From: Candidatus Latescibacterota bacterium
GTDB taxonomy: Bacteria > JAAXHH01
Reading direction: 5' to 3'
DNA: 64,000 nt
NCBI GenBank assembly: GCA_022823465.1
Contig: JAJEHX010000042.1
Span: forward strand, 18,047 to 82,046
Of the stretch, positions 30,620 to 46,143 are shown piece after piece. Numbering within the stretch: the first letter of the stretch is position 1; each line of letters begins with the position of its first letter. The position numbers and the translations under genes were made by a program. Below the pieces are notes generated by a model, which was not told where the DNA came from, ran no database searches, and saw only the letters and a list, made by a program, of their open reading frames with translations.

Positions 30620-31249
30620 TCAATCTTGGGAGATCCATGCAGGAGGAGGCCAGGCACCTACATCCTGTTGCAAGTTGCTTAACAGAGCGCCTATCGATCT
30701 TGTTAGTTTTCGAAAAGACCGCGACCTTCGATATGCATCCGACATTGAGAACAATGCACTTAATGCGGGCTGGTCTGTAGTTTCAATGTAACTTCTACCT
30801 GCTTGCATTCTTGCTTCGAGTTGCTCCTTTGCCCCCAGTGGTTCTTCAGGAGACGGGTGAGATTCGGCGTCGCTAAGAATACCTCTACGTCCTCTGATCG
30901 ATTCTATAGTAGCCAGAAACCAAGCCTCATACTCTCGATGTGCTAGTATGACTTCACACGGAATACCACCGGCAGATGCAGTTGCCCATGCTCGGACTGC
31001 GGGTCCCAACTCCGCAGGGCAATCAGTATCGCCGTCGAAAAGAATGAGAATCGCACGGCAATTTTGTTTCGAGAGCGCTAACCGCACCGCCTTTTGAACG
31101 TCAAATTCGCGAACGAGTTCGTGGCGCCGCCGCCGTATCGGGCGTCCAACGCCGATTGTCGATCTGCCGGCTTCCGCAAGAAGACGGCGCAACAGTACTG
31201 GAAAAGCTACTACGTCCCCGTGACCTTCTACGATAGGCTGGATGTTCAA
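30620..31249 (-). CDS. DUF4276-like TOPRIM-motif protein (predicted nuclease partner of upstream ATPase)
   Basis: TTG start overlapping the ATPase stop (TTGA). N-terminal IVEG (conserved TOPRIM Glu). ILILFDGDTDCP (DxDxD TOPRIM motif). About 209 aa. Confidence 0.65.
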   Translation of the reverse strand: MNIQPIVEGHGDVVAFPVLLRRLLAEAGRSTIGVGRPIRRRRHELVREFDVQKAVRLALSKQNCRAILILFDGDTDCPAELGPAVRAWATASAGGIPCEVILAHREYEAWFLATIESIRGRRGILSDAESHPSPEEPLGAKEQLEARMQAGRSYIETTDQPALSALFSMSDAYRRSRSFRKLTRSIGALLSNLQQDVGAWPPPAWISQD

Positions 31250-32478
31250 TGCGCGTTTCCCTCTGGAAACAACTCGTACTGGTACTTTATCTCGTCATCG
31301 AACAAATCCTCGGACATCGGTGTCAGTGCGTTTGATCTTAACAACTCTCCCGCCCCCATCAAGTGATCACACAGTGCCTGTCTTGAAGCTTGGGAAATCA
31401 CGTTTACTCGGGTCACGCCTTTACTCCAGGTTGCTATCCGCAGGTGTCGGTCTTCAATCCACTTAGCGTCCAAAACATCAGGACTGTGGGTTGTAACTAC
31501 TACTTGCATGAAGCGGGCGGCGTGCCTTAGTACATCGAGAATTGAGCCCAAAGCGCCCTGATGCATCGTGGCTTCGGGTTCCTCTATAACAAGAAGTGAA
31601 GGTTTTTGCGGCTGGAAAACGGCCGTGAGGAGCCCAAGTATACGTAGCGTTCCATCTGACATGTTAGAGGCTTCGAATCTCACAGGTTCCTTCTTGGCCC
31701 AGTCTTGCTTGAACTCTAACGTTAGCTTGTTACCATGCTTTTTGGGTTGAACACCAATAGTTCCAGGAACGATACTTTCGAGAACCTCACGTATTAGTTT
31801 CCAGTCATCCCGGGATTCGCGCTGGATTTCGCGCAACACGCTGGCCGCGTTACTACCATCCGAATGTAAACGCAAACCTCCGTCAGGATCCTGCATACCT
31901 CTCAAGGCAGTTGGCTCAATCCGGCATACACGCATTTCCGACAGGAATCTGGAAATGGATTTAAACCTTGCGTCGCCTCCGACAATCGGAAGAGCTAACG
32001 CGCTACGATCCATGACCAAATCTGAAACGTCTCCGAGTGTTAACCGACTCATCTTGGATTCCTTGGGTGCCAAATGGCGATCAAAGAGGTCGATCTGGCC
32101 ATCGGTCCTCTCCAAAGTACATCGCTCACGCACCACCTCGAAACCATAACTACCCCTGAGCGCCCGCAGTTCGAAGGCGTAATTCGCCAAGACCGTGTCA
32201 CTATCCAGGTTGTCTATTGTCACTGCCAGGCCCAAATTAGATGGACGACCCCTTGCAGAGCTCCTGTGGCCTACCGCTGGAAATCCGCCTCTGTGTTCGA
32301 GAACAGCTTGTAAAGGAGATGACATCGCTTCAGCCAAAAAAGCGAAAGCATCGGCAAAGTTACTCTTGCCAGAGCCATTCTGACCTACCAGAAAGGTCGG
32401 ATTGTCAAATTCCACAACATCCTTTTCAAAGCTTCGAAATCGGTGCAGTTTGAGTTTACGAAGTTTAGGATTCGACAT
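31246..32478 (-). CDS. ABC-type AAA ATPase (AAA_21/OLD-family-like)
   Basis: GQNGSGKSNF Walker A. LLVIEEPEATMH Walker B with the characteristic EEPE. VVTTHSP H-loop. Start at MSNPKLRKLKLHRF (32478) with GAGG RBS. Confidence 0.75.
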   Translation of the reverse strand: MSNPKLRKLKLHRFRSFEKDVVEFDNPTFLVGQNGSGKSNFADAFAFLAEAMSSPLQAVLEHRGGFPAVGHRSSARGRPSNLGLAVTIDNLDSDTVLANYAFELRALRGSYGFEVVRERCTLERTDGQIDLFDRHLAPKESKMSRLTLGDVSDLVMDRSALALPIVGGDARFKSISRFLSEMRVCRIEPTALRGMQDPDGGLRLHSDGSNAASVLREIQRESRDDWKLIREVLESIVPGTIGVQPKKHGNKLTLEFKQDWAKKEPVRFEASNMSDGTLRILGLLTAVFQPQKPSLLVIEEPEATMHQGALGSILDVLRHAARFMQVVVTTHSPDVLDAKWIEDRHLRIATWSKGVTRVNVISQASRQALCDHLMGAGELLRSNALTPMSEDLFDDEIKYQYELFPEGNAH

Positions 32479-32779
32479 CGTCGTACCTCGGGTCGACCAA
32501 GTGCTTTCCAGGGCGGCTGTCTGTTCTATTGCTGCTAGTCTATTTCGTCGATATCTGACGAGATTCATCGTATGGGAAGGGATAGATCAGGGCTGTTGGC
32601 CTGCCGTAGAGGAAAACCGGGAGGTGAGCAGCATCCCTATCCCGCCTGAAATAGAGGCCCGCCAGTGAGACGAAAGAAAACTGATTTCAGGATGCGCGTC
32701 AACCTGTACAGGAAAACACCATTGATGGAATTGGCAAAACCGAAGCTGTTAAAGTCATTTATTATTAAAGTCATCCGAC

Positions 32780-35133: not shown

Positions 35134-36072
35134 TCATCCGGGCCGTTTCATGATCAGGAGCAAGGGCCTGTGATCGGTGGGATACATCCTGCGGGCATCG
35201 TTGTTGTTGTCGAGGATGACGTAGACCCGGTCGCGATCCATCGCGAGTCCCTCTGCCGTCTTCGCGCCGAACTGCTCGTGCTGATAGAGGTATTCCGGAT
35301 CGTTGACAATATGGGCGAAGGACCAGATCGTCGAGGGGCTGTCCACGTCCAGGTACCGGATGGTCTTCCGTATGGTCGCGTTACTCCGCTGCAGGATGTA
35401 TACGTTCTCGGCCTCCCGGTGCAGCCCCGTGTAGCTGTTCGTCGATCCATGATTCGCGATCTCCACGACCCTTTGCACCGGGGCCATGTCTACTTCGATC
35501 AGGCCGCAGGGCTGCCGTTCCGCGGTGACCAGGAACCGGTCCCGGGCCATCATCGTGATTCCCTCGAGATAACCGCCGCGCGTCTGGAAGAGCCCTGCCG
35601 AAGCGCCCACGTCCCGAAGGCTCGTGGTGACCCAGGATGCCTTCTTCCCGTCCGCGTCGACCTTCAGAATGGCGAAGGCCCCTTCGCTGGCGAGATAGAA
35701 ACTGCCGTCGTCACCGCGGGTGATGCCTTCGAGGTCCAGCCGGAACACGCCGAAGGGCCTGGGTGCGTCGAACCGGACGTGGGGTACGAATACCGCGGCA
35801 TCTTCCCGAAGCTCGATCCGGAAGATGGTGTCGTCGTGCTTGTCGGACACGGTATACAGGGTGTCGTTGTGGACGAAAAGTCCCGATGGCTGGTTGGATT
35901 CGGGACCTTCCACGGGGAGGACGCTGATCGCTTCGAGGCGTATCGGATCGGTCTGCGCGTGGGATGCCTGGGGGGTCGAAGCCAGTATTGAGGCCCACAG
36001 GGAGAGCACTGCGAGCGGGAGACATAGCGCCAGCGGCCGCCGCACAACCCCGGGAAGCGCCCTACTCCCCAT
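35134..36072 (-). CDS. Secreted esterase-like-activity-of-phytase family protein
   Basis: Signal peptide. Repeated beta-propeller-like segments. General resemblance to PF13449-type proteins. Confidence 0.45.
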   Translation of the reverse strand: MGSRALPGVVRRPLALCLPLAVLSLWASILASTPQASHAQTDPIRLEAISVLPVEGPESNQPSGLFVHNDTLYTVSDKHDDTIFRIELREDAAVFVPHVRFDAPRPFGVFRLDLEGITRGDDGSFYLASEGAFAILKVDADGKKASWVTTSLRDVGASAGLFQTRGGYLEGITMMARDRFLVTAERQPCGLIEVDMAPVQRVVEIANHGSTNSYTGLHREAENVYILQRSNATIRKTIRYLDVDSPSTIWSFAHIVNDPEYLYQHEQFGAKTAEGLAMDRDRVYVILDNNNDARRMYPTDHRPLLLIMKRPG

Positions 36073-37732
36073 CGTCCACCTCGGCGATGTAGAGCTTGTG
36101 CCAGCGGAAGGAACCCACGGTACCGTCGTCGTTTACGGCATAACCCTTCAGCCAGGGTTTCCGTAGTTGCAGGCCCATCCTGTGAAAGAGGAAGGCCGCG
36201 GGATAGTCCGCCACCTGGACGTCCGCGGCTTCCCGGTAAAGTCTGTCCCTGATTTCAGGGTTCAGTTCGGCCGCGGCCGAGTCCACGAGGCGGTCGAAAG
36301 TCGGATTGTGCCAGTCCTGCCGGCCATGCCCCCGGGGCTGGGAGTGCCAGATCATGTCCAGCATGTTGCGCGGATCGAGGAAATCGGCGCCGAAAGCGAT
36401 CAGACCGAGGTTCATGTTCCACTTGTACAGGTGATCCATGTACGTGTGCAGGTCGGCCGTCCGGATATCCACGTCCACGCCGAGATGCTCTTTCAGCATG
36501 CTCTGTATCGCCACGCCGATGAGGCGGTCGGAAGGGGTGGGCGCCCTGAGCCACAGCTCCTGCCGGGGGAAACCCTGACCCTCGGGATAACCCGCTTCGC
36601 GCATTAACTGCCGTGCCCTCTCCGGGTCGAAGCCCTGTGCCGCGGCATGGCGGTCGCCTTCGAATTCCCTGAAGCCGGGCGGGATCATGGAATAGGCCGG
36701 CACGGCTCCGCCGCGCAGGATGACATTGCACATATTGTCGCGGTCCATCACCCGCGCAAAGGCTTCCCGCACACGAATGTCGTTGAAGGGCGGCAACTGC
36801 GTCCTGAAAAAGAGATACCAGGTGTTCAGCCCGTGGAACCGCACGAGATCCCGCTTCAGTTCGGGGTCCTTCTCGATGCGGTCCAGGTCGTTCACGTCGA
36901 CGTTTTCCATGTCGACTTCGTCGCTCTCGTAAGGAAGTATGGTCGCCGCGGCCGCGTTGCGGAAAGGGTGTATGACCTTCTCCAGGAAGGGTTTATGCGG
37001 ACCGTTGTAATAGGGGTTCGGGACGAGGGTCATATGGCTGCCGTTGACCCATTCCGTAACCATGAAACCGGAATTCGTGATGATGTTCTCCGGCTCGGTC
37101 CACTTTCGGCCGAATTTGTCCACCAGCCGCTTCGGCACCGGCATGGCGTCGCCGAAGGAGACGATATGGGGCAGGTAGGGCGCGCTTTTTTCGGTTTCGA
37201 TGACCAGCGTCGTATCGTCCACGGCCCGGATCCCCAGAGACTCGACGTCCTTGTTCTCCCCCTTGACGATCGCCTCGGCGTTCTTGATATCGTAATAGAA
37301 GAAGGCGTAGATGTTGGTGGATTCGGGGTCGAGCATCCTGCGATAGGAATAGACGAAGTCGTGGGCCGTCAGGGGCGATCCGTCGCTCCAGCGCATCCCC
37401 GATCGGAGATGGAAGGTCCAGACCTTGCCGTCTTCCGAGCCCCAGCTGTGCGCGGCGCCCGGGATCGGGTTCCAGTGCTCGTCCTTGAACAGCAGCGCTT
37501 CATATGGGAGGATCGTCTGCTCGGTATCGTAGGGCTCGATACTGGGATCCAGGCTCTTGGGTTCGGGACTCATGGAGCGCAGCACCTGACGCGAGGCGTC
37601 CACCGCGTCGTCCGGCAGCACCACGCCGATCGAGTTTACACGGTCCCCGGCCGCGGGCGCTTCCGTACCCCGATCGGCGTCTCCGCAAGACAACGGCAAC
37701 ATGATCGATATCAGAAGAATAGATAAGCGCAT
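36062..37732 (-). CDS. ABC transporter substrate-binding protein, family 5 (OppA/DppA-like), lipoprotein
   Basis: Start at MRLSILLISIMLPLSCG (lipobox). SBP_bac_5 conserved regions. The upstream part of the ORF to 37876 was rejected. Confidence 0.8.
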   Translation of the reverse strand: MRLSILLISIMLPLSCGDADRGTEAPAAGDRVNSIGVVLPDDAVDASRQVLRSMSPEPKSLDPSIEPYDTEQTILPYEALLFKDEHWNPIPGAAHSWGSEDGKVWTFHLRSGMRWSDGSPLTAHDFVYSYRRMLDPESTNIYAFFYYDIKNAEAIVKGENKDVESLGIRAVDDTTLVIETEKSAPYLPHIVSFGDAMPVPKRLVDKFGRKWTEPENIITNSGFMVTEWVNGSHMTLVPNPYYNGPHKPFLEKVIHPFRNAAAATILPYESDEVDMENVDVNDLDRIEKDPELKRDLVRFHGLNTWYLFFRTQLPPFNDIRVREAFARVMDRDNMCNVILRGGAVPAYSMIPPGFREFEGDRHAAAQGFDPERARQLMREAGYPEGQGFPRQELWLRAPTPSDRLIGVAIQSMLKEHLGVDVDIRTADLHTYMDHLYKWNMNLGLIAFGADFLDPRNMLDMIWHSQPRGHGRQDWHNPTFDRLVDSAAAELNPEIRDRLYREAADVQVADYPAAFLFHRMGLQLRKPWLKGYAVNDDGTVGSFRWHKLYIAEVDDGE

Positions 37733-37876
37733 GTTAGACGGTTGTTTGTCGCTGCCATCAGTTTCGTGGTGACCGGAATGTGGTCGGCTTACTTTCCAGC
37801 GCGTACAAGTGAACAAAACGGAGGTTACAGACTCAAGACATTCTGAACAACCTGAAGGAATAAAGCTTGAATCCAT

Positions 37877-39436
37877 TTAGCCTTTCTTTGCCATTCTTCT
37901 TAGCCACTCGGACTCATCAACTGCCACACGACTCTGTGTCGTCGCAAAAGTCTGTGCGATTCGTTGGGCGTATTCAGCCTTGAGTTCGCCTCGCCACGTA
38001 TATTGTCTGTCACAGGTGTCTGTGAATTCGAAATTACCATCTGATCTGCTTCTTACCGCGATTATCGCACTATTGCACTCCGACGGCTTGAATTGCGGCA
38101 GAAACCAACCGGACGGATCAAGTCCAATACCCATTCGCTTGAATTCGTGATCGAGTTTGATGACGAGTTGCTCCTTCTCCTTCGTTGGTTCAACCAGCGG
38201 AAGAAAAAGGAACGAAGTCTCCTCGTCCAACCTTACACAATCACATCGTGGCCTCATGCATATCAAGTGCCGTTCATCACCATCCATCGTCGCCGTGACG
38301 ATAGATCCCATCCACAATGTTGGTGGTGGCGCATTAAAAACTGTCCGAAAGCTCATTATCCACGCCAACCGTTCGTCAAGGTCGACGATGTTACCACACG
38401 CAAAACCCGATGAGAGGCCCTTAAATGCATTCTTGGGCAATACGCGAGCCTCCTGTAGACCCTTCTTCGCCAACTTAACCGTCTCTTCCAGGTCAATCTC
38501 TTCATCTCCGAACCGAAATCCTTCACCCTTACGACGTATCCAGCCCTCCACCGCTTCCACCCCGGCCGGAGACTCCTCGGCGACGGCGTTGTCCATAAGA
38601 CCACGAAGTTCCTCAGCAACATGGTTTACGATCTGGCGTTCCGCATCTTCTGGATCGGAAAGACAGACTCTGTGTGCGAGAAACGCCGGGTCCAAATCCG
38701 CACTGAATCGATCCAATACCTTATGCTCGCCCTCTCGAACGGCAGTCAGCGAGGTTAGTGCAATGGAGGGAAGCAATCCCTCTGTCATTGCCGCGAAATC
38801 ACTGATCAGTAAATCGGGAAGATCCTCCTCCGCGACGCTCCGGTTTCTCAGTGGCGCTGCCAGATTCACTGCAGACTTTGCATAAATGACAACTCGACCG
38901 TGCCGATATGAGATTTCCGTCTTGTTTTCATTCGTAGACGGGTCGAGTTCCACCTCTTTTAGTTTAACGACAATATCATTGCAAATGTCCTCCAACCGAC
39001 CTTCACCAGTATAAATAGCCACGAGTCGAAGCGAGTTTCGATTATCTGCCTCATCGGTTAGCAGTTTTGACAGCAACGTCAGCGCATATTGAGGATCGTC
39101 CGCCTGCAATCGCCAATCCAAGACCACGATATCGGCTTGCCTCAGTGCATTTATCTCGGATTGCGTAGGCCCAACTACGCCGCAGATCACGCCGATTGTG
39201 GAGAACGAATCAGTTATTGATCCAGCATTAAGCGATTGTTCCAGCCTCGGGACAACCGGGATTTGATCTTCCTGACTAACGGGCCGAGTTTCCCGACCCG
39301 GCACCACCACCTCTGCCTTGGGTCCAACGTCACCGTCCAATTCCATATATGCTTTGTCGTCCACCACGACGGCTGTCCGTAGAAAGCGCTGAGCGAACAA
39401 GCGGTGGCGACGACGGATCTCTTCTTCCGATACCAT
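37877..39436 (-). CDS. Receiver (REC)-like domain protein with ~330-aa C-terminal domain of unknown function
   Basis: AVVVDDK (acidic pocket), ADIVVLDWRL (phospho-acceptor Asp position), LVAIYT (conserved Thr) and VVIYAKS (Lys). A GGAG RBS lies 8 nt upstream. Translationally adjacent (10 bp) to the hybrid kinase gene. Confidence 0.55.
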   Translation of the reverse strand: MVSEEEIRRRHRLFAQRFLRTAVVVDDKAYMELDGDVGPKAEVVVPGRETRPVSQEDQIPVVPRLEQSLNAGSITDSFSTIGVICGVVGPTQSEINALRQADIVVLDWRLQADDPQYALTLLSKLLTDEADNRNSLRLVAIYTGEGRLEDICNDIVVKLKEVELDPSTNENKTEISYRHGRVVIYAKSAVNLAAPLRNRSVAEEDLPDLLISDFAAMTEGLLPSIALTSLTAVREGEHKVLDRFSADLDPAFLAHRVCLSDPEDAERQIVNHVAEELRGLMDNAVAEESPAGVEAVEGWIRRKGEGFRFGDEEIDLEETVKLAKKGLQEARVLPKNAFKGLSSGFACGNIVDLDERLAWIMSFRTVFNAPPPTLWMGSIVTATMDGDERHLICMRPRCDCVRLDEETSFLFLPLVEPTKEKEQLVIKLDHEFKRMGIGLDPSGWFLPQFKPSECNSAIIAVRSRSDGNFEFTDTCDRQYTWRGELKAEYAQRIAQTFATTQSRVAVDESEWLRRMAKKG

Positions 39437-39445
39437 CCTGTACTC

Positions 39446-42400
39446 CTATGATTCGTCCATTGGCACGATACCGAAAGTCGCGCCTACGTCTCCTACTATC
39501 AATTGTAGATCGAACCCTACCCGATGCAAAGTTTCACGTCCGATGTGTAATCCCATGCCACGACCGCCTGGTTTTCGGCTAAAACCGTATTCGAAAATCG
39601 CCTCCCGGTCACGAACATTGACTCCGGGGCCGTTATCCGCGACGAGCAATGAGCCGTCGTGCTCATCGAGTTCAATGCGCCGGTCTAATTGTGGATTCTG
39701 CTGTGATAGCCAGAAGATCGCGTTGTCTACCAAGTTTACAAACACAGGATAGAAGCTCGACGGAAAGCCTATAACCCTTGCGTTTGCGAAAGCCTTGGTC
39801 GCCGTCAACGTTACGTTATGACGCGACATACGAGCATTGAACAGTTCTTTAAGGAAATCTCGCACTTCGGAACCACGAATTTCCACCTGTTTTCTGTAGA
39901 GACGGCGCTGCAACGGTGTGAACAGTGTCAGGTAACCGTCAAGGTGATCGAAACTTGCTCGTATGCTCTCATACAACTTTGCCAATCCTTCATTCGCATC
40001 AGCCCACGCCCTCAGTTTTCTAAGTCCATTCCGAACTGACCTTATGGTACCAGCAAACTCGTGGTTTATTATTTCAATAGCCATTCCCAACTGCGCCAAC
40101 TGAGCATCGGCTTCCGCTTCCTCCTCCAGCAAGAGATTGCGTTGTTCAATGGCCACCAACTGATCGGCTATGGAACTCTCCCCCGTGACGTCTATGGACT
40201 GTAGTTGCTCCAATATCGAGCGTAACAATTCGCTTTGTTCTTCTGCAATCTTTTGGATTCTTTTCTCCAATTCATCCCTGGTTTCGACGAAAACCTCATC
40301 GGGCATCTCTGCGACGTCTACCCGTTGAAATTCACTCAGCACTGCCCGCAATTCCATCTCGACAGCTTTGAGTGATTGCCCGGCCGCACCCCTTGCAGCC
40401 GAGGCGACATTTTCCGCTTCCGTCCTAACAGCGCGGCTTGATTCTCCGGTAGTTTTGCGGACTTCCTTCCCTAGAGTCTCCAAAGCTTCTTCCGTTCTTT
40501 CACGGCGATCAAGTGCCAATTCCGCCTTTCTGGCTTCTTCACCGATCAGATCCTCAATCAGTTCCCGTGTTGGTCGAAACACATGTTCTTGAAGCGAAGC
40601 GAACTCGGTGTTGTACACGTTCCAATCGCGGAGGACAGCCTTGCTCAATCCGATACGAGGACGCGATACGCGATACTTTGCCTCCAACTCCCTAATATCC
40701 GCGTGCACTCGGCGTTCGAGGTTGAGGACCTCGCGTGCTGCCAATCGACTATCCGCGATGCCGCACGCAGACTGCAACTTTTCCGCGACGCCGTCCGTTA
40801 ATGCCATCGCTTCCTCTTGTGGCATATTGTTCGCGATTTTATCAAAAAACTCGTTCAGACGTTCCTGAAATACCCTCTTTTTTTCCGAAACCTGTCTTTC
40901 GCGTCGCTTCCTCGCTTCATCCTCTTTGGATAGTTCGTCTTTTCTCGTGTCGAACGTTTCAGCATGCACACCATCGGATCTGAAAAAGTCCGCAGCAATC
41001 TGCAGAAGGAAGTTTTGTAGTATTGACCGAAACTGGCGATAGGCTTTGTTTTCCTGGAATCCTTCTCGGCCCGCCTTTTCTCGCAGATCCCCATTCCTGG
41101 TAGCGTCGATCTCCACCGCTCCGAACATCTTGCGGTGTGAAAAATAATAATAATACGCGCTTTTTGTTCGCCTGAACTCGATGTCCAACCAATCAAATTC
41201 GGTATCGCCATATGGCAGTATTCGAATCCCGTTTCGATATATGTACAATCCTCCTATTTGTTCGGTCTTGTATGCCAATCTGGCGTGTTCCTCATTGGGG
41301 ATCGTCGAATACTTGGTTTCCCCCTCGAAGGCTGCAAAGTCGATCGAGAACTGGCCGCAGTTCGTACGTGCTCCTCGTCCACCACCCCAAGGTATGACGT
41401 GATCGGCTGTCGTCTCCCCATAGATCGAGATTTCGCCCATAAACTGACCGAACTCGTCGAACGTCCCTCGGATGCGGTGATCCGCATTCTGAAACTCCTC
41501 TGGAGTAAAAAACTCGTCCTCGCCGATCAGATCTACTGCCACCTCGTCCGTCTTGTGGTCCCGGAACGCGGTATGGATCACGCTATGAGATCCGGGCGTC
41601 ATGGAGTTACTGAATCCGAGCAGTGCTTTTTTCAAAGGCGTCGCCTTCTTCAATGCGGCGGTCTTGCTCGCTGTCGGGTCGCCGTCTATATCTTCTACCA
41701 ACAATGTCGAGGTTGGCTTGATGATGAATTGCGTACCGGAGCCGTCACTGCGAAGGGACGGCTCCCCGAGGTAGGAGTCAATCACTTGCGGATCGATATA
41801 AAAAAGATCCAACTCTCGACCAAGCTTTTTCAAGAACCGATTCTCGACACGCAGGCCGACCCTTTCGGCATTCTCACGGAACTCTCCCACCATCTCGGCC
41901 ACATCATGCGCTGAAGGTAGCGTACCCGGCGCGAATGACCGAAGTGGGATTTCAACTTCGTCCAAGTCGATTCCTGGCCACTCGAATATGCCCCAATTCA
42001 GGAATGCCGCAGTAAGATCGGAAGCTTCGCCGTCGGTCTTCGGTCGAGTGAGTACCAGAAGTTGTGGCCCTATAGTCGAAATGGCGAGTCTCCCGATTCC
42101 CTTCTCGCCGAGCATAGGGCGAGGTTTTGTATCCGGGTCAGGCGGCGGATTTGCGGTCGGGTCGAGTTTGTTCTCCGTACCGATAGTTAGCCACCGGGCT
42201 ACAAAGTTGTCGTAACTCATCCCGACGCCATCGTCCCTCAAAACGAACAGGCCGTCCGAGCGATAGTAATCGATCTCTACACGGACAGCATAGGCATCGT
42301 GGGCGTTCTTGAACAACTCGCTGATTGCCGTGGGCATACCGGCTATTTGTTGCCTACCGAGCATGTCGAGTGTTCGAGCACTTGTCTTGAATTTCGGCAT
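39446..42400 (-). CDS. Hybrid protein: N-terminal GHKL (Hsp90/MutL/MORC-like Bergerat) ATPase + long coiled coil + C-terminal histidine kinase (HisKA + HATPase_c)
   Basis: N-terminus: ELFKNAHDA (motif I) and RDDGVGMS (motif II). A roughly 450-aa charged coiled coil follows. C-terminus: INHEF H-box, NLVDNAI N-box, DNGPGV G1, IFEYGF F-box, GGRGMGLHI G2. The start ATG overlaps the dcm stop (TGATG). Confidence 0.7.
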   Translation of the reverse strand: MPKFKTSARTLDMLGRQQIAGMPTAISELFKNAHDAYAVRVEIDYYRSDGLFVLRDDGVGMSYDNFVARWLTIGTENKLDPTANPPPDPDTKPRPMLGEKGIGRLAISTIGPQLLVLTRPKTDGEASDLTAAFLNWGIFEWPGIDLDEVEIPLRSFAPGTLPSAHDVAEMVGEFRENAERVGLRVENRFLKKLGRELDLFYIDPQVIDSYLGEPSLRSDGSGTQFIIKPTSTLLVEDIDGDPTASKTAALKKATPLKKALLGFSNSMTPGSHSVIHTAFRDHKTDEVAVDLIGEDEFFTPEEFQNADHRIRGTFDEFGQFMGEISIYGETTADHVIPWGGGRGARTNCGQFSIDFAAFEGETKYSTIPNEEHARLAYKTEQIGGLYIYRNGIRILPYGDTEFDWLDIEFRRTKSAYYYYFSHRKMFGAVEIDATRNGDLREKAGREGFQENKAYRQFRSILQNFLLQIAADFFRSDGVHAETFDTRKDELSKEDEARKRRERQVSEKKRVFQERLNEFFDKIANNMPQEEAMALTDGVAEKLQSACGIADSRLAAREVLNLERRVHADIRELEAKYRVSRPRIGLSKAVLRDWNVYNTEFASLQEHVFRPTRELIEDLIGEEARKAELALDRRERTEEALETLGKEVRKTTGESSRAVRTEAENVASAARGAAGQSLKAVEMELRAVLSEFQRVDVAEMPDEVFVETRDELEKRIQKIAEEQSELLRSILEQLQSIDVTGESSIADQLVAIEQRNLLLEEEAEADAQLAQLGMAIEIINHEFAGTIRSVRNGLRKLRAWADANEGLAKLYESIRASFDHLDGYLTLFTPLQRRLYRKQVEIRGSEVRDFLKELFNARMSRHNVTLTATKAFANARVIGFPSSFYPVFVNLVDNAIFWLSQQNPQLDRRIELDEHDGSLLVADNGPGVNVRDREAIFEYGFSRKPGGRGMGLHIGRETLHRVGFDLQLIVGDVGATFGIVPMDES

Positions 42401-43482
42401 CAGGACAGCCTTCCCACATCCTTGAGATGCTCGATGAACTGTTGACCGATTAGCTTGGCCAGACGGACCGGTACTGCGTTTCCGATCTGCCTCGCCATAG
42501 ACGCCATGCTCCCATCAAACACGAAATCTTCCGGAAAAGTTTGTAAGCAAGCCGCTTCTCGAATACTGATCGCCCGATCCTGCTCAGGATGGCCAAAACG
42601 CCCGTTCGAATAGCTAATACACCGAGTAGTCAATCCCGAAGCAGGGGAGTCCCAGGCCATTCGGCCATACACATCGGAATACCCGGTAAAACCCTTGTGA
42701 CATTCGAGCTTTAGGTACTCCGGCCAGTCTCGTTCGCCTCCGCCTTCAGGCGTCGCTTTTATACGGTCGAGGTTTCGTTCAGAAAGATTTGCCGCTTTGT
42801 GATTAAGCACCTCTTCGTGCTCCTCGCCTGCGCGAATCGCCGGAAGATGGGAAATCCAGTCCCGAACCGTCGTGTAATTCTCTTTCGGTGTTCCAGGACC
42901 GTGCGTCTCATCGGGTATTGAAACAGCACCATGGCGGCTTCCTACAAGCACGAGTCGTCGTCGGCTTTGCGGTATACCGTACTTGGCTAGTAGGATGGGA
43001 CGATAGTCCACTTCATACCCTGCTTTATAGAGTCGGTTCAGAAAGTCACCAAAAGGTTGACTAGCGCTGTCTAACTTCTGCAACCCCGGTACGTTCTCCA
43101 CAAACACAAGGTCCGGTCGACAGCCTTCCACAAACCTGGCAAAGTGAGCAAGCAGCGGCACGCGCTCATCCTGGTCCAATCCAGGTCGCTTCGTGTTTTG
43201 CTTGCTGAATGGTTGACACGGTGCGCAACCGCTGAACAGCACCGGATTCGGTCGTTCCGCTTCTATCCGTTGGCGGATCATATCAACGCTAACCATGCGG
43301 ATATCTGCAAACTCGAAGCGGGCGTCGGGAAAGTTGGCTTGGAAACTCTCCCGAACATTCGCGTCATGATCTAGAGCGAACGAAATTTCCATGCCCGCAG
43401 CCCTAAATCCACAACTCGCGCCGCCACAACCAGCGAAAAAGTCATATACCTGAATGGCCATCGGGTCACCCCGGTGGGTCAC
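42400..43482 (-). CDS. dcm: DNA (cytosine-5)-methyltransferase
   Basis: FAGCGG (motif I), PCQPFS (motif IV catalytic Cys), ENV (motif VI), and the C-terminal target-recognition domain. Confidence 0.85.
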   Translation of the reverse strand: MTHRGDPMAIQVYDFFAGCGGASCGFRAAGMEISFALDHDANVRESFQANFPDARFEFADIRMVSVDMIRQRIEAERPNPVLFSGCAPCQPFSKQNTKRPGLDQDERVPLLAHFARFVEGCRPDLVFVENVPGLQKLDSASQPFGDFLNRLYKAGYEVDYRPILLAKYGIPQSRRRLVLVGSRHGAVSIPDETHGPGTPKENYTTVRDWISHLPAIRAGEEHEEVLNHKAANLSERNLDRIKATPEGGGERDWPEYLKLECHKGFTGYSDVYGRMAWDSPASGLTTRCISYSNGRFGHPEQDRAISIREAACLQTFPEDFVFDGSMASMARQIGNAVPVRLAKLIGQQFIEHLKDVGRLS

Positions 43483-43623: not shown

Positions 43624-44058
43624 TCACCCACTCGCAAGATACCCTACTTTACACCGTATGAGTTTTGCCAGCCTGTGCTCCACTGCTGCTTCGTTTCTGG
43701 TCTCACACTGCCATATGACAAGAACCCGCCAGCCGAGTTTTATCAAAGCTGCTTCATGACGAGCATCGCGGTCTATGTTGGCAGCGAATTTCTCGGTCCA
43801 GAAGTCTTTCCGGGATTTCGGAGTGGACGCAAACCGACATCCCGCATGCCGATGCCAGAAGCATCCATGCACGAACACAGCCAGTCTATGTTTAGGAAGC
43901 ACTAGATCGGGACTTCCTGGAAGGTCCTTGCGGTGCAGACGAAAACGCAGGCCCATCCGATGAACGATGCGACGCACGGCAAGTTCCGGGGCCGTATTGC
44001 GAGTGCGAATCGCCGCCATCAATTCGCTACGCCGTTTGCGATCCATGATGTCGGTCAT
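43624..44058 (-). CDS. vsr: Very-short-patch repair endonuclease
   Basis: Conserved Vsr motifs (…TAPELAVRR…HRKDLPGSPDLVLPKHRLAVFVHGCFWHRH…). 144 aa. Confidence 0.85.
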   Translation of the reverse strand: MTDIMDRKRRSELMAAIRTRNTAPELAVRRIVHRMGLRFRLHRKDLPGSPDLVLPKHRLAVFVHGCFWHRHAGCRFASTPKSRKDFWTEKFAANIDRDARHEAALIKLGWRVLVIWQCETRNEAAVEHRLAKLIRCKVGYLASG

Positions 44059-44208: not shown

Positions 44209-46143
44209 CTAGATCCGGATCAGTTCCTTGACCAGGAGGTCGTTGATCCGGCCCGCGAAACCCACGGGATCGTCGAGCTTGGATCCCTCGGCCACCACGG
44301 CCTGCTCGTAAAGCAGGCGCCCGATGGACTCGACGCGGGCGTCCGCGTCGTCGCTGTCGTGGAGCTTTTGCAGGCCCTGGACCACAGGATGTCCGGCGTT
44401 GAGTTCCAGGATGCGCTTGGAGGCCTGAGCCTGGGCCCCGCCCTCGCCCATGCGTTGCATGAGCCGTTCCATGTGGGCGCTCATGGCGCCCTCGTCGGCC
44501 ACCAGGCAGGACGCGCTGTCCTTGAGACGCGTGGACAATCGGATATCCTGCACCTCCGATATCTTGCCCTTCAGGGTCTCGATCAGGGCCTTGAAGGTCT
44601 TTTCATCGTCCTCCGCCCTGGCCTTATCGGATTCGTCGGCCGTGATGTCGCCTTTGTCGGCCGCCTTGTACTTCTTCTCGCGGTACTCGGTCACCGACGA
44701 CATGACGAATTCGTCGATGGGATCCGTCATGAAGAGGACGTTCCAGCCACGGTCCCGGAAGATCTCCAGGTACGGCGTCCTTTCGAGCATGCCGCGATGC
44801 TCGCCGATCAGGTAGTAGATCTCCTCCTGGTCGGGCGGCATCTGGTCTACGTATTCATCCATGGAGATGAACTTCCCGGCCTCGGTGTTCATGGATTCGT
44901 ACACGGCGAGGGAGGTAAGGGCGTCCCGGTTCTCGAAGTCCTGCGCCATCCCTTCCTTGAGGATCAGCCCCAGTTCCCTGAAGAAATCCACGTACTTGTC
45001 GAACTCGTCCTTCTTCATCTCCTCCAGCACGGAGAAGATCCGCTTGACGATGTTCTTCCGGATACGGTCGAGTATGGGATTCTGCTGCAGGATCTCGCGG
45101 GAGACGTTGAGGGGCAGATCTGAGCAGTCCACCACGCCCTTGATGAAGCGCAGGTAGGGCGGCAGCAGCTCCTCGCAGTTTTCCATGATCTGGACCCGCT
45201 GCACGTACAGTCTGGGGCCGACCTTGGGATCGCCGAACATCATGTCGAAGGGCCGCTTCGCCGGGATGAAGAGCAGTACCTTGAATTCGGTCAGTCCCTC
45301 GGCCGTGTAGTGGATCACCCTGGCCGGATCGCCGTAATCGTGGGAGATCTGGCGGTAGAAGGCGTTGTACTCGTCGTCCTCGATCTCGTCCTTCGATCGG
45401 AGCCAGAGCGCCTTCATGGAGTTGAGCGTCTCTTCCCGGACCACCGCCTCCGTCTTATCATCCTCCCCCTCGACCGGTTCGTGTCGCTCCACGTCCATGA
45501 CGACCGGGTACTCGATAAAGTCGGAGAACTCCTTGACCACCTGCCGGAGCCGCCATTCCTCCAGAAACTCCTTTTCGTCCTCCTTGAGATGGAGCGTGAC
45601 ATCGGTCCCGTGCGTCTCCTTTTCCACCATCTTCACGGTGAACTCGCCCTCTCCTGCGGAGACCCAGCGGACGCCCTGGTCTTTCGGGTCGCCGGCCAGA
45701 CGGGAGACCACCGTGACCCGGTCGGCCACCATGAAGGCAGAATAGAAACCCACGCCGAACTGGCCGATCAACTCGGGGCGGCTGGCTTCGTCGGCCTGCT
45801 GCAGGGTCTCGAGGAACGCCCTGGTACCCGACTTCGCGATGGTGCCCAGCTGATCGACGATGGTTTCTCGGGACATCCCGGTGCCGTTGTCGGAAACCGT
45901 CAGGGTGTTCTTGTCCTTGTCGGCGATCAGCTTGATCTTCCACTCGGTGTCGCCGTCCAGCAAGTCGCTGTTGTTGATGGAATTGAAACGGATCTTGTTG
46001 ATGGCGTCGCTGGCGTTGCTGATCAACTCGCGGAGGAAGATCTCCTTGTTGGAATAGAGCGAATGGGTGATCAGATGAAGGATCTGCCTCAACTCGCTCT
46101 TGAATTCCATGGTTTCGGTGGATGCGGCAGGTGCTTCGGACAT
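44209..46143 (-). CDS. htpG: Molecular chaperone HtpG (Hsp90)
   Basis: IHSLYSNKEIFLRELISNASDA N-terminal Bergerat motif. Full-length 644 aa with middle and C-terminal dimerisation domains. Confidence 0.9.
   Translation of the reverse strand: MSEAPAASTETMEFKSELRQILHLITHSLYSNKEIFLRELISNASDAINKIRFNSINNSDLLDGDTEWKIKLIADKDKNTLTVSDNGTGMSRETIVDQLGTIAKSGTRAFLETLQQADEASRPELIGQFGVGFYSAFMVADRVTVVSRLAGDPKDQGVRWVSAGEGEFTVKMVEKETHGTDVTLHLKEDEKEFLEEWRLRQVVKEFSDFIEYPVVMDVERHEPVEGEDDKTEAVVREETLNSMKALWLRSKDEIEDDEYNAFYRQISHDYGDPARVIHYTAEGLTEFKVLLFIPAKRPFDMMFGDPKVGPRLYVQRVQIMENCEELLPPYLRFIKGVVDCSDLPLNVSREILQQNPILDRIRKNIVKRIFSVLEEMKKDEFDKYVDFFRELGLILKEGMAQDFENRDALTSLAVYESMNTEAGKFISMDEYVDQMPPDQEEIYYLIGEHRGMLERTPYLEIFRDRGWNVLFMTDPIDEFVMSSVTEYREKKYKAADKGDITADESDKARAEDDEKTFKALIETLKGKISEVQDIRLSTRLKDSASCLVADEGAMSAHMERLMQRMGEGGAQAQASKRILELNAGHPVVQGLQKLHDSDDADARVESIGRLLYEQAVVAEGSKLDDPVGFAGRINDLLVKELIRI

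Follow-up and report, generated by a model that had tools for sequence, protein, structure and literature searches.

A dcm-linked HEF_HK histidine kinase with a MORC-like ATPase head and its receiver partner: a candidate phosphorelay-gated restriction-modification-like module

Introduction

What is a histidine kinase that begins with a second ATPase, of the Hsp90/MutL/MORC type, doing next to a gene for a DNA cytosine methyltransferase? The question arises from one gene in a 64,000-nucleotide stretch of the genome of a Candidatus Latescibacterota bacterium (hereafter the window), whose preliminary description singled out the fusion of the two ATPase types as atypical. This is so only relative to textbook kinases, whereas within the HEF_HK family the arrangement is standard: group 1, with the domain order HATPase_c_3, HEF_HK and HATPase_c, is predominant (174/222), 91.6% of kinases are linked to a receiver, restriction-modification (R-M) domains are enriched nearby, and homologues were first spotted through their in planta induction in Pectobacterium (Bellieny-Rabelo et al. 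2021, PMC8011034). Set beside the HEF_HK/Response_reg_2 pairs of that survey, the locus shows no structural difference, having the identical architecture, an adjacent Response_reg_2 gene, an upstream C5-methylase, the frequently found Vsr and a soluble kinase (PMC8011034). The kinase is a plain group 1 member, and the fusion, described in 2021, is common and neither new nor rare; because it was already catalogued, the headline of the preliminary description is not a discovery. We found no experiments on any HEF_HK family member in the literature. What is added here to knowledge of the family is the lack of a conserved nuclease gene, the co-divergence of three genes, a family of receiver C-terminal domains, copies disrupted by insertion sequences (IS), and the likeness of the kinase head to MORC and SMCHD1.

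Results

Gene order and integrity of the locus

The kinase lies in a run of four genes on the minus strand:

43624..44058, minus strand: vsr, very-short-patch repair endonuclease (Pfam Vsr 2.8e-30, TIGR00632 7e-44, above cut-off)
42400..43482, minus strand: dcm, C5 cytosine DNA methyltransferase (Pfam DNA_methylase 7e-54; PADLOC MTase_II 4e-88)
39446..42400, minus strand: histidine kinase, 984 aa
37877..39436, minus strand: receiver protein, Response_reg_2 (PF19192; 113 bits, E 2.2e-32)

The dcm reading frame is listed from a GTG at 43482, its likely true start being the ATG at 43461 (MAIQVYDFF...), and the translation contains the motifs FAGCGG, PCQ, ENV, QSRRR and GNAVP. Vsr is the companion of dcm and mends the T:G mismatches left by deamination of 5-methylcytosine. 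The reported overlap of the kinase start with dcm was borne out, as the dcm stop and the kinase ATG share one base (TGATG at 42398-42402). Nine nucleotides separate the kinase stop from the receiver ATG, which is directly preceded by GGAG. The adjoining Response_reg_2 protein, overlooked in the preliminary description, is the presumptive substrate of the kinase and as such the key to the system.

Could the fusion be an artefact of assembly or annotation that joined two genes? The reading frame is unbroken over 984 codons, the exact sequence is present in public collections on two contigs, and the 120 best of 4,126 homologues, 978-987 aa long and nearly all of 984 aa, carry the same three Pfam domains; the artefact is thereby refuted. 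A look-up of contigs by exact match to the receiver protein returned nothing. The highest mean Kyte-Doolittle hydropathy over 19 residues is 1.47, in a strand of the catalytic domain, against a usual transmembrane threshold of 1.6, and by this crude test the kinase appears to be soluble, with no transmembrane segment. No catalytic motif is disrupted in either half of the kinase, and kinase and receiver retain the key residues of all four enzymatic or phospho-accepting modules. The AlphaFold2 (AF2) models of the kinase and the receiver protein are of low overall confidence (pLDDT about 60 each).

Domains of the kinase

Five regions can be distinguished along the protein:

41711..42400, minus strand: GHL/MORC-type Bergerat ATPase domain, kinase aa 1-230 (Bergerat motifs I-III)
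41051..41503, minus strand: conserved beta-rich middle domain, kinase aa about 300-450 (GGLYIYRNGIRILPYG, YYYFSHRK, EKAGREGF)
40121..41047, minus strand: charged, all-helical linker, kinase aa about 452-760 (AF2 helices 452-835)
39893..40093, minus strand: HEF_HK DHp domain, kinase aa 770-836 (Pfam PF19191; H-box I-N-H780-E-F)
39449..39883, minus strand: catalytic ATP-binding (CA) domain, kinase aa about 840-984 (N, G1, F and G2 boxes)

An N-terminal GHKL ATPase of the Hsp90/MutL/MORC kind had been proposed, and profile searches place it in that class. Pfam HATPase_c_3 (PF13589) matches aa 24-125 above its gathering cut-off (E 3.3e-14, 53.5 bits), a profile of aa 1-460 finds the N-domains of GRP94/Hsp90 (E 2e-5) and MutL (1e-3) among the PDB sequences, and the N-terminal half aligns with the HtpG of the same window at an hhalign probability of 92%. 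Bergerat motifs I (E28-x3-N32-x2-D35, with E28, N32 and D35), II (D56-x-G58-x-G60) and III (G98-x-K100-G101-x-G103) are invariant down to homologues of 28% identity. The nearest structures to the head are MORC and SMCHD1, and the kinase is 29% identical to a phage protein annotated ParaMORC3. By analogy with the paraMORC context, the head may have a DNA-sensing role (Iyer et al. 2008).

Behind the head, the middle domain is strongly conserved (column identity 0.90-0.94, with invariant residues) and occupies the position of the S5/transducer domain in MutL and MORC proteins; it is also kept in an E. coli variant without the GHKL head. Strands occur at 308-408 in the AF2 model, and pLDDT is < 50 for 387-451; a sequence-profile search of the PDB with aa 300-460 returned no solved relative. 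By position alone, the middle domain is a candidate S5/transducer domain. The following stretch, described earlier as a Glu/Arg/Lys/Ala-rich coiled coil, is a long helical spacer in the AF2 model (ten helices at aa about 452-835, ~380 aa). E, K, R, A and Q make up 45-57% of the linker residues and P and G are scarce; Glu, Ala and Arg, together with Leu, are indeed the commonest residues, but Lys falls outside the top eight. A crude periodicity scan for coiled-coil heptads gave no clear answer, and PADLOC LmuB, an SMC-like protein, matches aa 486-858 weakly; the linker may form a coiled coil or a bundle of helices.

The C-terminal part is, as first described, a bona fide histidine kinase. HEF_HK matches at E 2.2e-29 (102 bits against a cut-off of 24.1), with His780 (codon 40061-40063) as the core histidine followed by an acidic residue in H780-E781-F782 and invariant among homologues of 28-90% identity. 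HATPase_c (PF02518) matches aa 883-967 above the Pfam gathering cut-off (E 1.1e-13, 52 bits), and the C-terminal profile matches HK853 and other kinases at E 1e-5. Invariant in the CA domain are N889 and N893 of the N box, G924-P-G926 (G1), F936 (F box) and the G2 box G946-R-G948-x-G950-L, so that both the H-box and the N-box assignments are supported. The DHp-CA fold is thus complete with its H box and its N, G1, F and G2 boxes; ATP-dependent autophosphorylation on histidine and transfer to the receiver aspartate are predicted. Relative to class I HisKA kinases such as HK853 with its partner RR468, an ATPase takes the place of a PAS, HAMP or transmembrane sensor at the input, the H box is without the conserved T/N at H+4 that is linked to phosphatase activity, and Pfam and NCBIfam detect no DNA-binding domain in the output of the receiver protein.

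The receiver protein and its output region

The receiver protein falls into two parts:

38870..39385, minus strand: Response_reg_2 receiver (REC) domain, receiver aa 18-189 (D26-D27, D107, T143, K187)
37880..38839, minus strand: uncharacterised output (effector) region, receiver aa 200-519, with helical and beta-rich parts

The phospho-acceptor D107 (codon 39116-39118) is accompanied by the acidic pair D26-D27 and by T143 and K187; the phospho-acceptor residues are, like the catalytic residues of the kinase, conserved down to 28% identity. The output region is helical over about 203-360; a beta-rich domain at about 370-519 bears the invariant motif C393-x2-P396-x-C398-D399-x2-R402. The C-terminal domain defines a family that falls into 1,406 clusters at 50% identity, and the complete proteins among the 150 best matches all have it behind an N-terminal region of ~200 aa. 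Profile searches with the C-terminal 320 aa, including 23 diverse members, gave no match in Pfam, NCBIfam, PADLOC or the PDB. Neither a nuclease nor another catalytic signature was recognised in the effector domain by sequence scans and conservation, and Pfam and NCBIfam found no helix-turn-helix (HTH) or other DNA-binding output domain in the protein. A PD-(D/E)xK reading of D399...E484-x-K486 was rejected, as neither E484 nor K486 is kept throughout a set of 120 representatives and K486 is replaced by R in distant homologues.

The only lead at the level of fold is MazF. Foldseek aligned the receiver model with MazF 1ub4_A over 134 columns (E 6.9e-3, probability 1.00, TMt 0.60), in an output that does not give the aligned region of the model, and the matches to 5cqy_A and 5co7_C are similar, none reaching E 1e-3. 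A Pfam scan of 23 receiver members for PemK at E up to 1 found no match, and hhalign of the domain against E. coli MazF returned a probability of 0.3%. The model-based resemblance is a lead that hhalign does not back.

The cassette across genomes

Linkage was assessed at 80 loci from as many genomes, which represent more than 12 phyla. The tie to dcm that had been read from the overlap in the window holds across nearly all of this sample: dcm is directly upstream of the kinase at 78 of the 80 loci, with the start/stop overlap conserved, and the receiver gene is directly downstream at 79. A single locus (L034) has kinase and receiver with no detectable dcm, and vsr is present at 47 of 80, where it precedes dcm or follows the receiver gene. 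Three plasmid copies of 28% identity retain the trio of dcm, kinase and receiver, the order in Rhizobium being kinase-receiver-dcm-vsr. On predicted viral contigs in IMG/VR, the trio is found at 11 of 14 loci, in two of them with dcm after the receiver; the remaining three end within the kinase match, two at a contig end. Identities to the proteins of the window correlate between dcm, kinase and receiver (r 0.92-0.97), with means of 67% for Dcm, 63% for the kinase and 48% for the receiver, which evolves fastest. The three genes are thus tightly linked, in a manner that survives rearrangement, and have diverged together. No conserved fourth gene or separate nuclease gene was found among the related loci.

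The cassette has been acquired horizontally, with an island GC of 51-54% against 58-63% in the flanks. About 20 loci adjoin Type I R-M genes, which places them in defence islands. A two-gene variant in E. coli is devoid of both GHKL head and dcm, so that the kinase-receiver pair can persist without methylase or MORC input. IS elements break the receiver gene at three loci (L002, L007 and L077) and the kinase gene at one (L046), dcm being intact. We rejected this asymmetry as a sign of toxicity: the insertions are real, but four in kinase or receiver and none in dcm is not significant given target size (P about 0.4), nor is the share of three of the four in the receiver gene (P about 0.07).

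Discussion

Proposed mechanism

We propose, with a probability of roughly one half, that the (vsr)-dcm-kinase-receiver cassette is a mobile R-M-like conflict or defence module in which a His-Asp phosphorelay controls the restriction arm. Dcm would methylate host DNA and so mark self, with Vsr mending the T:G mismatches that deamination produces. The kinase would act as a soluble dimer; as its input module, a MORC/paraMORC-type GHKL ATPase would be active and be followed by the conserved middle domain. If MutL and MORC proteins are a guide, the two heads would pair on or around DNA once they bind ATP, and would sense the state of that DNA; the resulting conformational change could pass through the ~380-aa helical linker to the DHp helices. 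The CA domain would then phosphorylate His780, and the phosphoryl group would move from His780 to Asp107 of the neighbouring Response_reg_2 protein, switching its C-terminal effector domain on (or off) to act on the invader or the cell. We infer that the signal is DNA or its methylation state, and likewise which way the switch works and how the effector acts, and "restriction" is an assumption, since the effector carries no recognisable nuclease or catalytic signature. A narrower version, in which the cassette is an immune R-M-like system with a MORC-type clamp that reads DNA or methylation state and passes phosphate to an effector bearing a new toxic or nucleolytic CxxPxCD module, possibly of MazF/CcdB-like fold, is offered only tentatively.

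Relation to known systems

A parallel in logic is Detocs, a two-component system for defence (Rousset et al. 2023), which is reported to comprise the kinase DtcA with a TPR-type sensor, a separate "buffer" receiver DtcB and the receiver-effector DtcC with a PNP-type ATP-nucleosidase, without a methylase. The cassette resembles it in its cytoplasmic sensor kinase, in the fusion of the receiver domain, the presumptive target of phosphorylation, to an effector that is not a transcriptional one, and in the defence context proposed here, but has a single receiver protein without a PNP domain, and the PADLOC Detocs models matched none of its four proteins. ParaMORC GHKL proteins occur in R-M operons with Dcm and Vsr, and paraMORC1-5 combine GHKL and S5 domains with nuclease, TIR or other C-terminal extensions, or with helicase or nuclease partners (Iyer, Abhiman and Aravind 2008, PMC2292703). 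The kinase shares with them the N-terminal GHL Bergerat domain with intact motifs, the operon with Dcm and Vsr, and a sporadic horizontal spread; it differs in that its S5 domain is only a candidate by position, its extension is a putative coiled coil with a full histidine-kinase transmitter, and its cassette has no linked helicase or recognisable nuclease gene (PMC2292703). VcSduA, a paraMORC3-type Shedu protein, joins a GHKL ATPase to a DUF4263 nuclease and loses defence when either is mutated (PMC12137116). There, too, the ATPase is proposed to gate an effector in phage defence, but that effector is a directly fused PD-(D/E)xK nuclease, in place of the phosphorelay and separate, uncharacterised effector protein proposed here. 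As outright matches we rejected VcSduA, a fusion of GHKL and nuclease without a kinase (PMC12137116), MADS, an N6-methylase system in which the sole histidine kinase gene lies at the island boundary (preprint), and the A. baumannii Ssp system, which is irrelevant to the cassette.

Alternative explanations

The cassette could instead be an ordinary regulatory two-component system in which an intracellular cue, such as the NTP level, tunes methylase or R-M genes without any killing effector, as Bellieny-Rabelo et al. 2021 (PMC8011034) proposed. The output domain without a detectable nuclease motif and the discovery of homologues as in planta-induced genes suit such a role. Nonetheless, we consider it unlikely, given that no DNA-binding output was found in the receiver by Pfam or NCBIfam, that a unit of three or four genes moves across phyla and brings along no further R gene that it might regulate, and that the fastest-evolving receiver and the IS in three receiver genes fit a costly effector better. 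More improbable still is that the kinase is itself an ATP-dependent Type II restriction endonuclease of the BbrUII/HgiDII class, with the kinase half and receiver as accessory or degenerate parts. The head is homologous to that of these enzymes, which likewise have a C5 methylase partner, and dcm occupies the place of the cognate methylase; NCBIfam NF050001 matches aa 5-124 (E 1.5e-17) and the REase_II models of PADLOC, which has no other model for the kinase or the receiver protein, match aa 9-110 (E 8.7e-9). The likeness, however, is partial and stops after the head, at 63.4 bits against an equivalog cut-off of 550, the remainder has no nuclease likeness, and BbrUII/HgiDII enzymes, of about 660 aa, have neither kinase module nor receiver partner. 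Degeneration is further argued against by the conservation of kinase and receiver residues to 28% identity.

An addiction (post-segregational killing) module, in which kinase and receiver monitor the cell's own methylation and kill or arrest cells that lose dcm or the cassette, and so stabilise a selfish element, draws on the same structural evidence as defence does and would suit the strictly horizontal distribution, the tight coupling to dcm, and the finding that copies exist with intact dcm and an IS-broken kinase or receiver, while only L034 is without dcm. The E. coli two-gene variant, which has no dcm at all, speaks against it, and we rate it about as unlikely as the regulatory role, although the present data do not separate it from defence, and classical R-M systems combine the two.

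Significance

The family is very widespread and spreads horizontally as a compact dcm-kinase-receiver unit without a recognisable nuclease. In the window, the four genes form a clean and intact example that retains every catalytic residue and is suited to cloning. If the proposed phosphorelay gating is true, the cassette would stand as the first R-M system to be gated by a phosphorelay, and a family that comprises more than 1,400 clusters at 50% identity would acquire a function; kinase activity would provide a tractable read-out for prokaryotic MORC-like ATPases, and a new effector domain would be revealed. Should the phosphorelay indeed gate a restriction or abortive effector by the state of DNA, two-component signalling would reach into the discrimination of self from non-self DNA.

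Architecture of the fusion kinase

Judged by its sequence, the N-terminal domain of the 984-aa protein encoded at 39446–42400 (−) is of the Hsp90/MutL/MORC (GHL) type, as the preliminary description had proposed. HATPase_c_3 covers aa 24–125 (Pfam, E 3.3e-14, above gathering threshold), a profile of aa 1–460 matched GRP94/Hsp90 N-domains (2e-5) and MutL (1e-3) among solved structures, motifs I–III aligned with those of the HtpG encoded in the window (hhalign probability 92%), and aa 4–160 share 29% identity with a phage protein annotated ParaMORC3. E28, N32, D35, D56, G58, G60, G98, K100, G101 and G103 are invariant, and because these motif residues persist even in 28%-identical plasmid homologues, this GHKL head is very probably a working ATPase. 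The C-terminal half likewise reads as a complete class I transmitter, with HEF_HK (PF19191; aa 770–836, E 2.2e-29) and HATPase_c (aa 883–967, E 1.1e-13) both above Pfam gathering thresholds, profile matches to HK853 and its relatives down to E 1e-5, and invariant H780 and N, G1, F and G2 box residues, bearing out the earlier view of a bona fide histidine kinase with its own GHKL-type ATPase. Its H-box carries no T or N at H+4, a position tied to phosphatase activity in HisKA kinases, and the protein may therefore be kinase-only, without phosphatase activity. The head is followed by a highly conserved, beta-rich middle region (aa ~300–450; motifs GGLYIYRNGIRILPYG, YYYFSHRK and EKAGREGF) and then by ten predicted helices (aa 452–835). 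The long Glu/Arg/Lys/Ala-rich spacer described earlier was thus recovered in its helices and abundant E, A and R, together with L, but lysine is not prominent.

The fusion of a GHL-type ATPase with a complete histidine kinase in one protein was confirmed as real; the competing explanation, an assembly artefact, is very improbable. Contrary to what had been supposed, the fusion is not atypical: among the 4,126 homologues found by sequence search, the best 120 (75–95% identity, 978–987 aa) have the same three domains, the closest named one among the matches listed being an "ATP-binding protein" from a Gemmatimonadota MAG. The combination HATPase_c_3, HEF_HK and HATPase_c was described as "group 1", comprising 174 of 222 non-redundant HEF_HK proteins (Bellieny-Rabelo, Pretorius, Moleleki, Genome Biol Evol 2021, PMC8011034). 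The same study found kinase-like and receiver-like genes linked in 91.6% of 644 regions, with C5 methylases, Vsr and other R-M domains over-represented nearby, and considered the HEF_HK family probably a branch of the paraMORCs of Iyer et al. 2008 (PMC8011034). The window protein is an ordinary member of this family, known since 2021 and catalogued in Pfam; literature searches found no experimental work on the family after the 2021 paper.

Gene island and receiver partner

Four co-directional genes occupy one low-GC islet (51–54% GC, versus 58–63% in the flanks).

Genes of the cassette
43624–44058 (−), vsr
42400–43482 (−), dcm
39446–42400 (−), 984-aa kinase ORF
37877–39436 (−), 519-aa receiver ORF

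The dcm stop codon and the kinase ATG have one base in common (TGATG), and the kinase stop codon lies 9 nt before the receiver start, which has GGAG shortly upstream; this layout suggests an operon with translational coupling. On both flanks the window shares synteny with two related genomes (L001 and L002), and the island was therefore inherited within this lineage. A genuine HtpG (Hsp90, also a GHKL ATPase; 44209–46143 (−)) directly adjoins the island, an adjacency that appears coincidental because the same flank occurs in L001. Directly after the receiver stop codon is a 604-aa mechanical ORF (36062–37876 (−)) for a peptide-binding-type ABC substrate-binding protein; its true start is probably ~48 codons downstream, at the lipoprotein-like signal MRLSILLISIMLPLSCGD, in which case the right-hand island boundary falls within that ~140-bp stretch.

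The adjacent receiver gene is the partner that the preliminary description missed. Response_reg_2 (PF19192) spans aa 18–189 (Pfam, E 2.2e-32), and the product looks like a phosphorylatable receiver, since the D26/D27 acidic pair, phospho-acceptor D107, T143 and K187 are 93–100% conserved among 120 representatives of 50%-identity clusters. The remaining 320 residues had no match in Pfam, NCBIfam, PADLOC or PDB sequences. They belong to a large family (1,406 clusters at 50% identity, E up to 1e-3), and in all complete proteins among the 150 best this domain stands behind a ~200-aa N-terminal region, the site of the receiver domain. R234, D249, H255, R256, E276, G377, C393, P396, C398, D399, R402, R503, E510, W511 and R513 are strongly conserved. 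Foldseek matched the predicted beta-rich end (aa ~370–519, pLDDT ~80) to MazF (E 7e-3, probability 1.0, TMt 0.60), a relation unsupported by hhalign (probability 0.3%); MazF is the sole fold-level lead for this end, and a lead only.

Two further low-GC stretches occur in the window, at 30620–32568 (−; 52% GC), an overlapping gene pair matching the PADLOC candidate defence system HEC-01 (HEC-01A, E 5e-103; HEC-01B, E 5e-61), and at 10034–14545 (48–51% GC), where the first gene pair had no PADLOC match.

Genes of the other low-GC stretches
31246–32568 (−), AAA_21/AAA_15 ABC-type ATPase
30620–31249 (−), DUF4276 protein
10034–10555, 173-aa ORF
10552–11871, DUF7790 protein, overlapping the 173-aa ORF
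after this pair, AhpC/TSA-like ORF (below Pfam cut-off)
13442–14545, sigma-54 activator

Distribution and disruption of the cassette

Scanning one genome per species yielded 80 loci (L001–L080; kinase identity 49–90%) in Gammaproteobacteria, Alphaproteobacteria, Binatia, Spirochaetia, Cyanobacteria, Acidobacteriota, Gemmatimonadota, Nitrospirota, Chloroflexota, Verrucomicrobiota, Bacteroidota, Chlorobiota, Latescibacterota and Planctomycetota, a range that clearly points to horizontal spread. ORF calls and phmmer placed dcm directly 5′ of the kinase in 78 of the 80 and the receiver gene directly 3′ in 79, with vsr present in 47, where it precedes dcm in the window's clade and trails the receiver gene in the majority of more distant copies. 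No fourth gene is conserved across the 80 loci, and Type I R-M genes alone recur nearby (~20 loci). Dcm, kinase and receiver diverge from the window proteins in step (their identities correlate at r 0.92–0.97), the receiver fastest. Plasmids of Pseudoalteromonas, Rhizobium and Pantoea keep the trio at only 28% identity, the Rhizobium copy in the order kinase-receiver-dcm-vsr; 11 of 14 IMG/VR contigs also keep it, two with dcm moved to after the receiver gene, and the other three end within the kinase match (two at the contig end). Linkage that outlasts rearrangement argues strongly for joint action of the three proteins. At L055 and L073, Dcm is far more diverged from the window's (36–40% identity) than the kinase is (50–52%), which suggests a methylase swap in an otherwise conserved cassette. 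Many host MAGs bear names (COS4_bin, RHO1_bin, RHO3_bin, APA_bin, CAR3_bin, SB06xx_bin, Ca. Thiosymbion and Ca. Palauibacter) that we take to denote sponge or other marine-invertebrate symbiont collections; symbiont communities are known to be rich in R-M systems, and enrichment of the cassette in them is possible.

Four loci are interrupted by insertion sequences.

IS insertions
L002:11521–12638, receiver gene
L007:12004–13128, receiver gene
L077:11505–13028, receiver gene
L046:10383–11396, kinase gene (rve element)

The receiver-gene elements are DDE_3, DDE_Tnp_1 and DDE_Tnp_1_4, making four families with rve, and dcm is intact in all four loci; the pattern fits a costly restriction arm and is by itself not statistically significant. 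Receiver or kinase genes are truncated or frameshifted at L009, L024, L032, L057, L062, L069 and L080, some perhaps through assembly errors. A two-gene variant in an E. coli "remnant integrative element" (AJ304858.2, L084:2738–6332) has no dcm and encodes a 614-aa HEF_HK and HATPase_c protein without the GHKL head, then a 582-aa Response_reg_2 protein; its kinase alignment begins at aa ~345 of the window protein, and the conserved middle domain is therefore kept.

A candidate methylation-linked conflict system

The cassette comprises a methylase, a methylation-damage repair nuclease, a soluble kinase and a receiver fused to a non-DNA-binding output, with no other gene; this anatomy, like the residue conservation and gene linkage, is directly observed. 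A methylation-linked conflict system is the best-supported reading, the MORC-like ATPase being the only candidate input of the kinase. Alternatives are a purely regulatory two-component system, an addiction module, or a kinase protein that is itself an HgiDII-like restriction enzyme; the last shares the GHKL head, but the match is confined to that head and, at 63 bits, falls well short of the 550-bit cut-off.

In the conflict-system model, DNA state would drive ATP-dependent dimerisation of the GHKL heads, signalling through the helical linker to the dimerisation/phospho-acceptor domain. This would set the phosphorylation state of H780 and, in turn, of the receiver protein's D107, and so control the receiver's effector domain; what the signal is, which way the switch works and what the effector does are inferred. 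The window's cassette is intact, and the idea of a phosphorelay-gated R-M system is directly testable with it.
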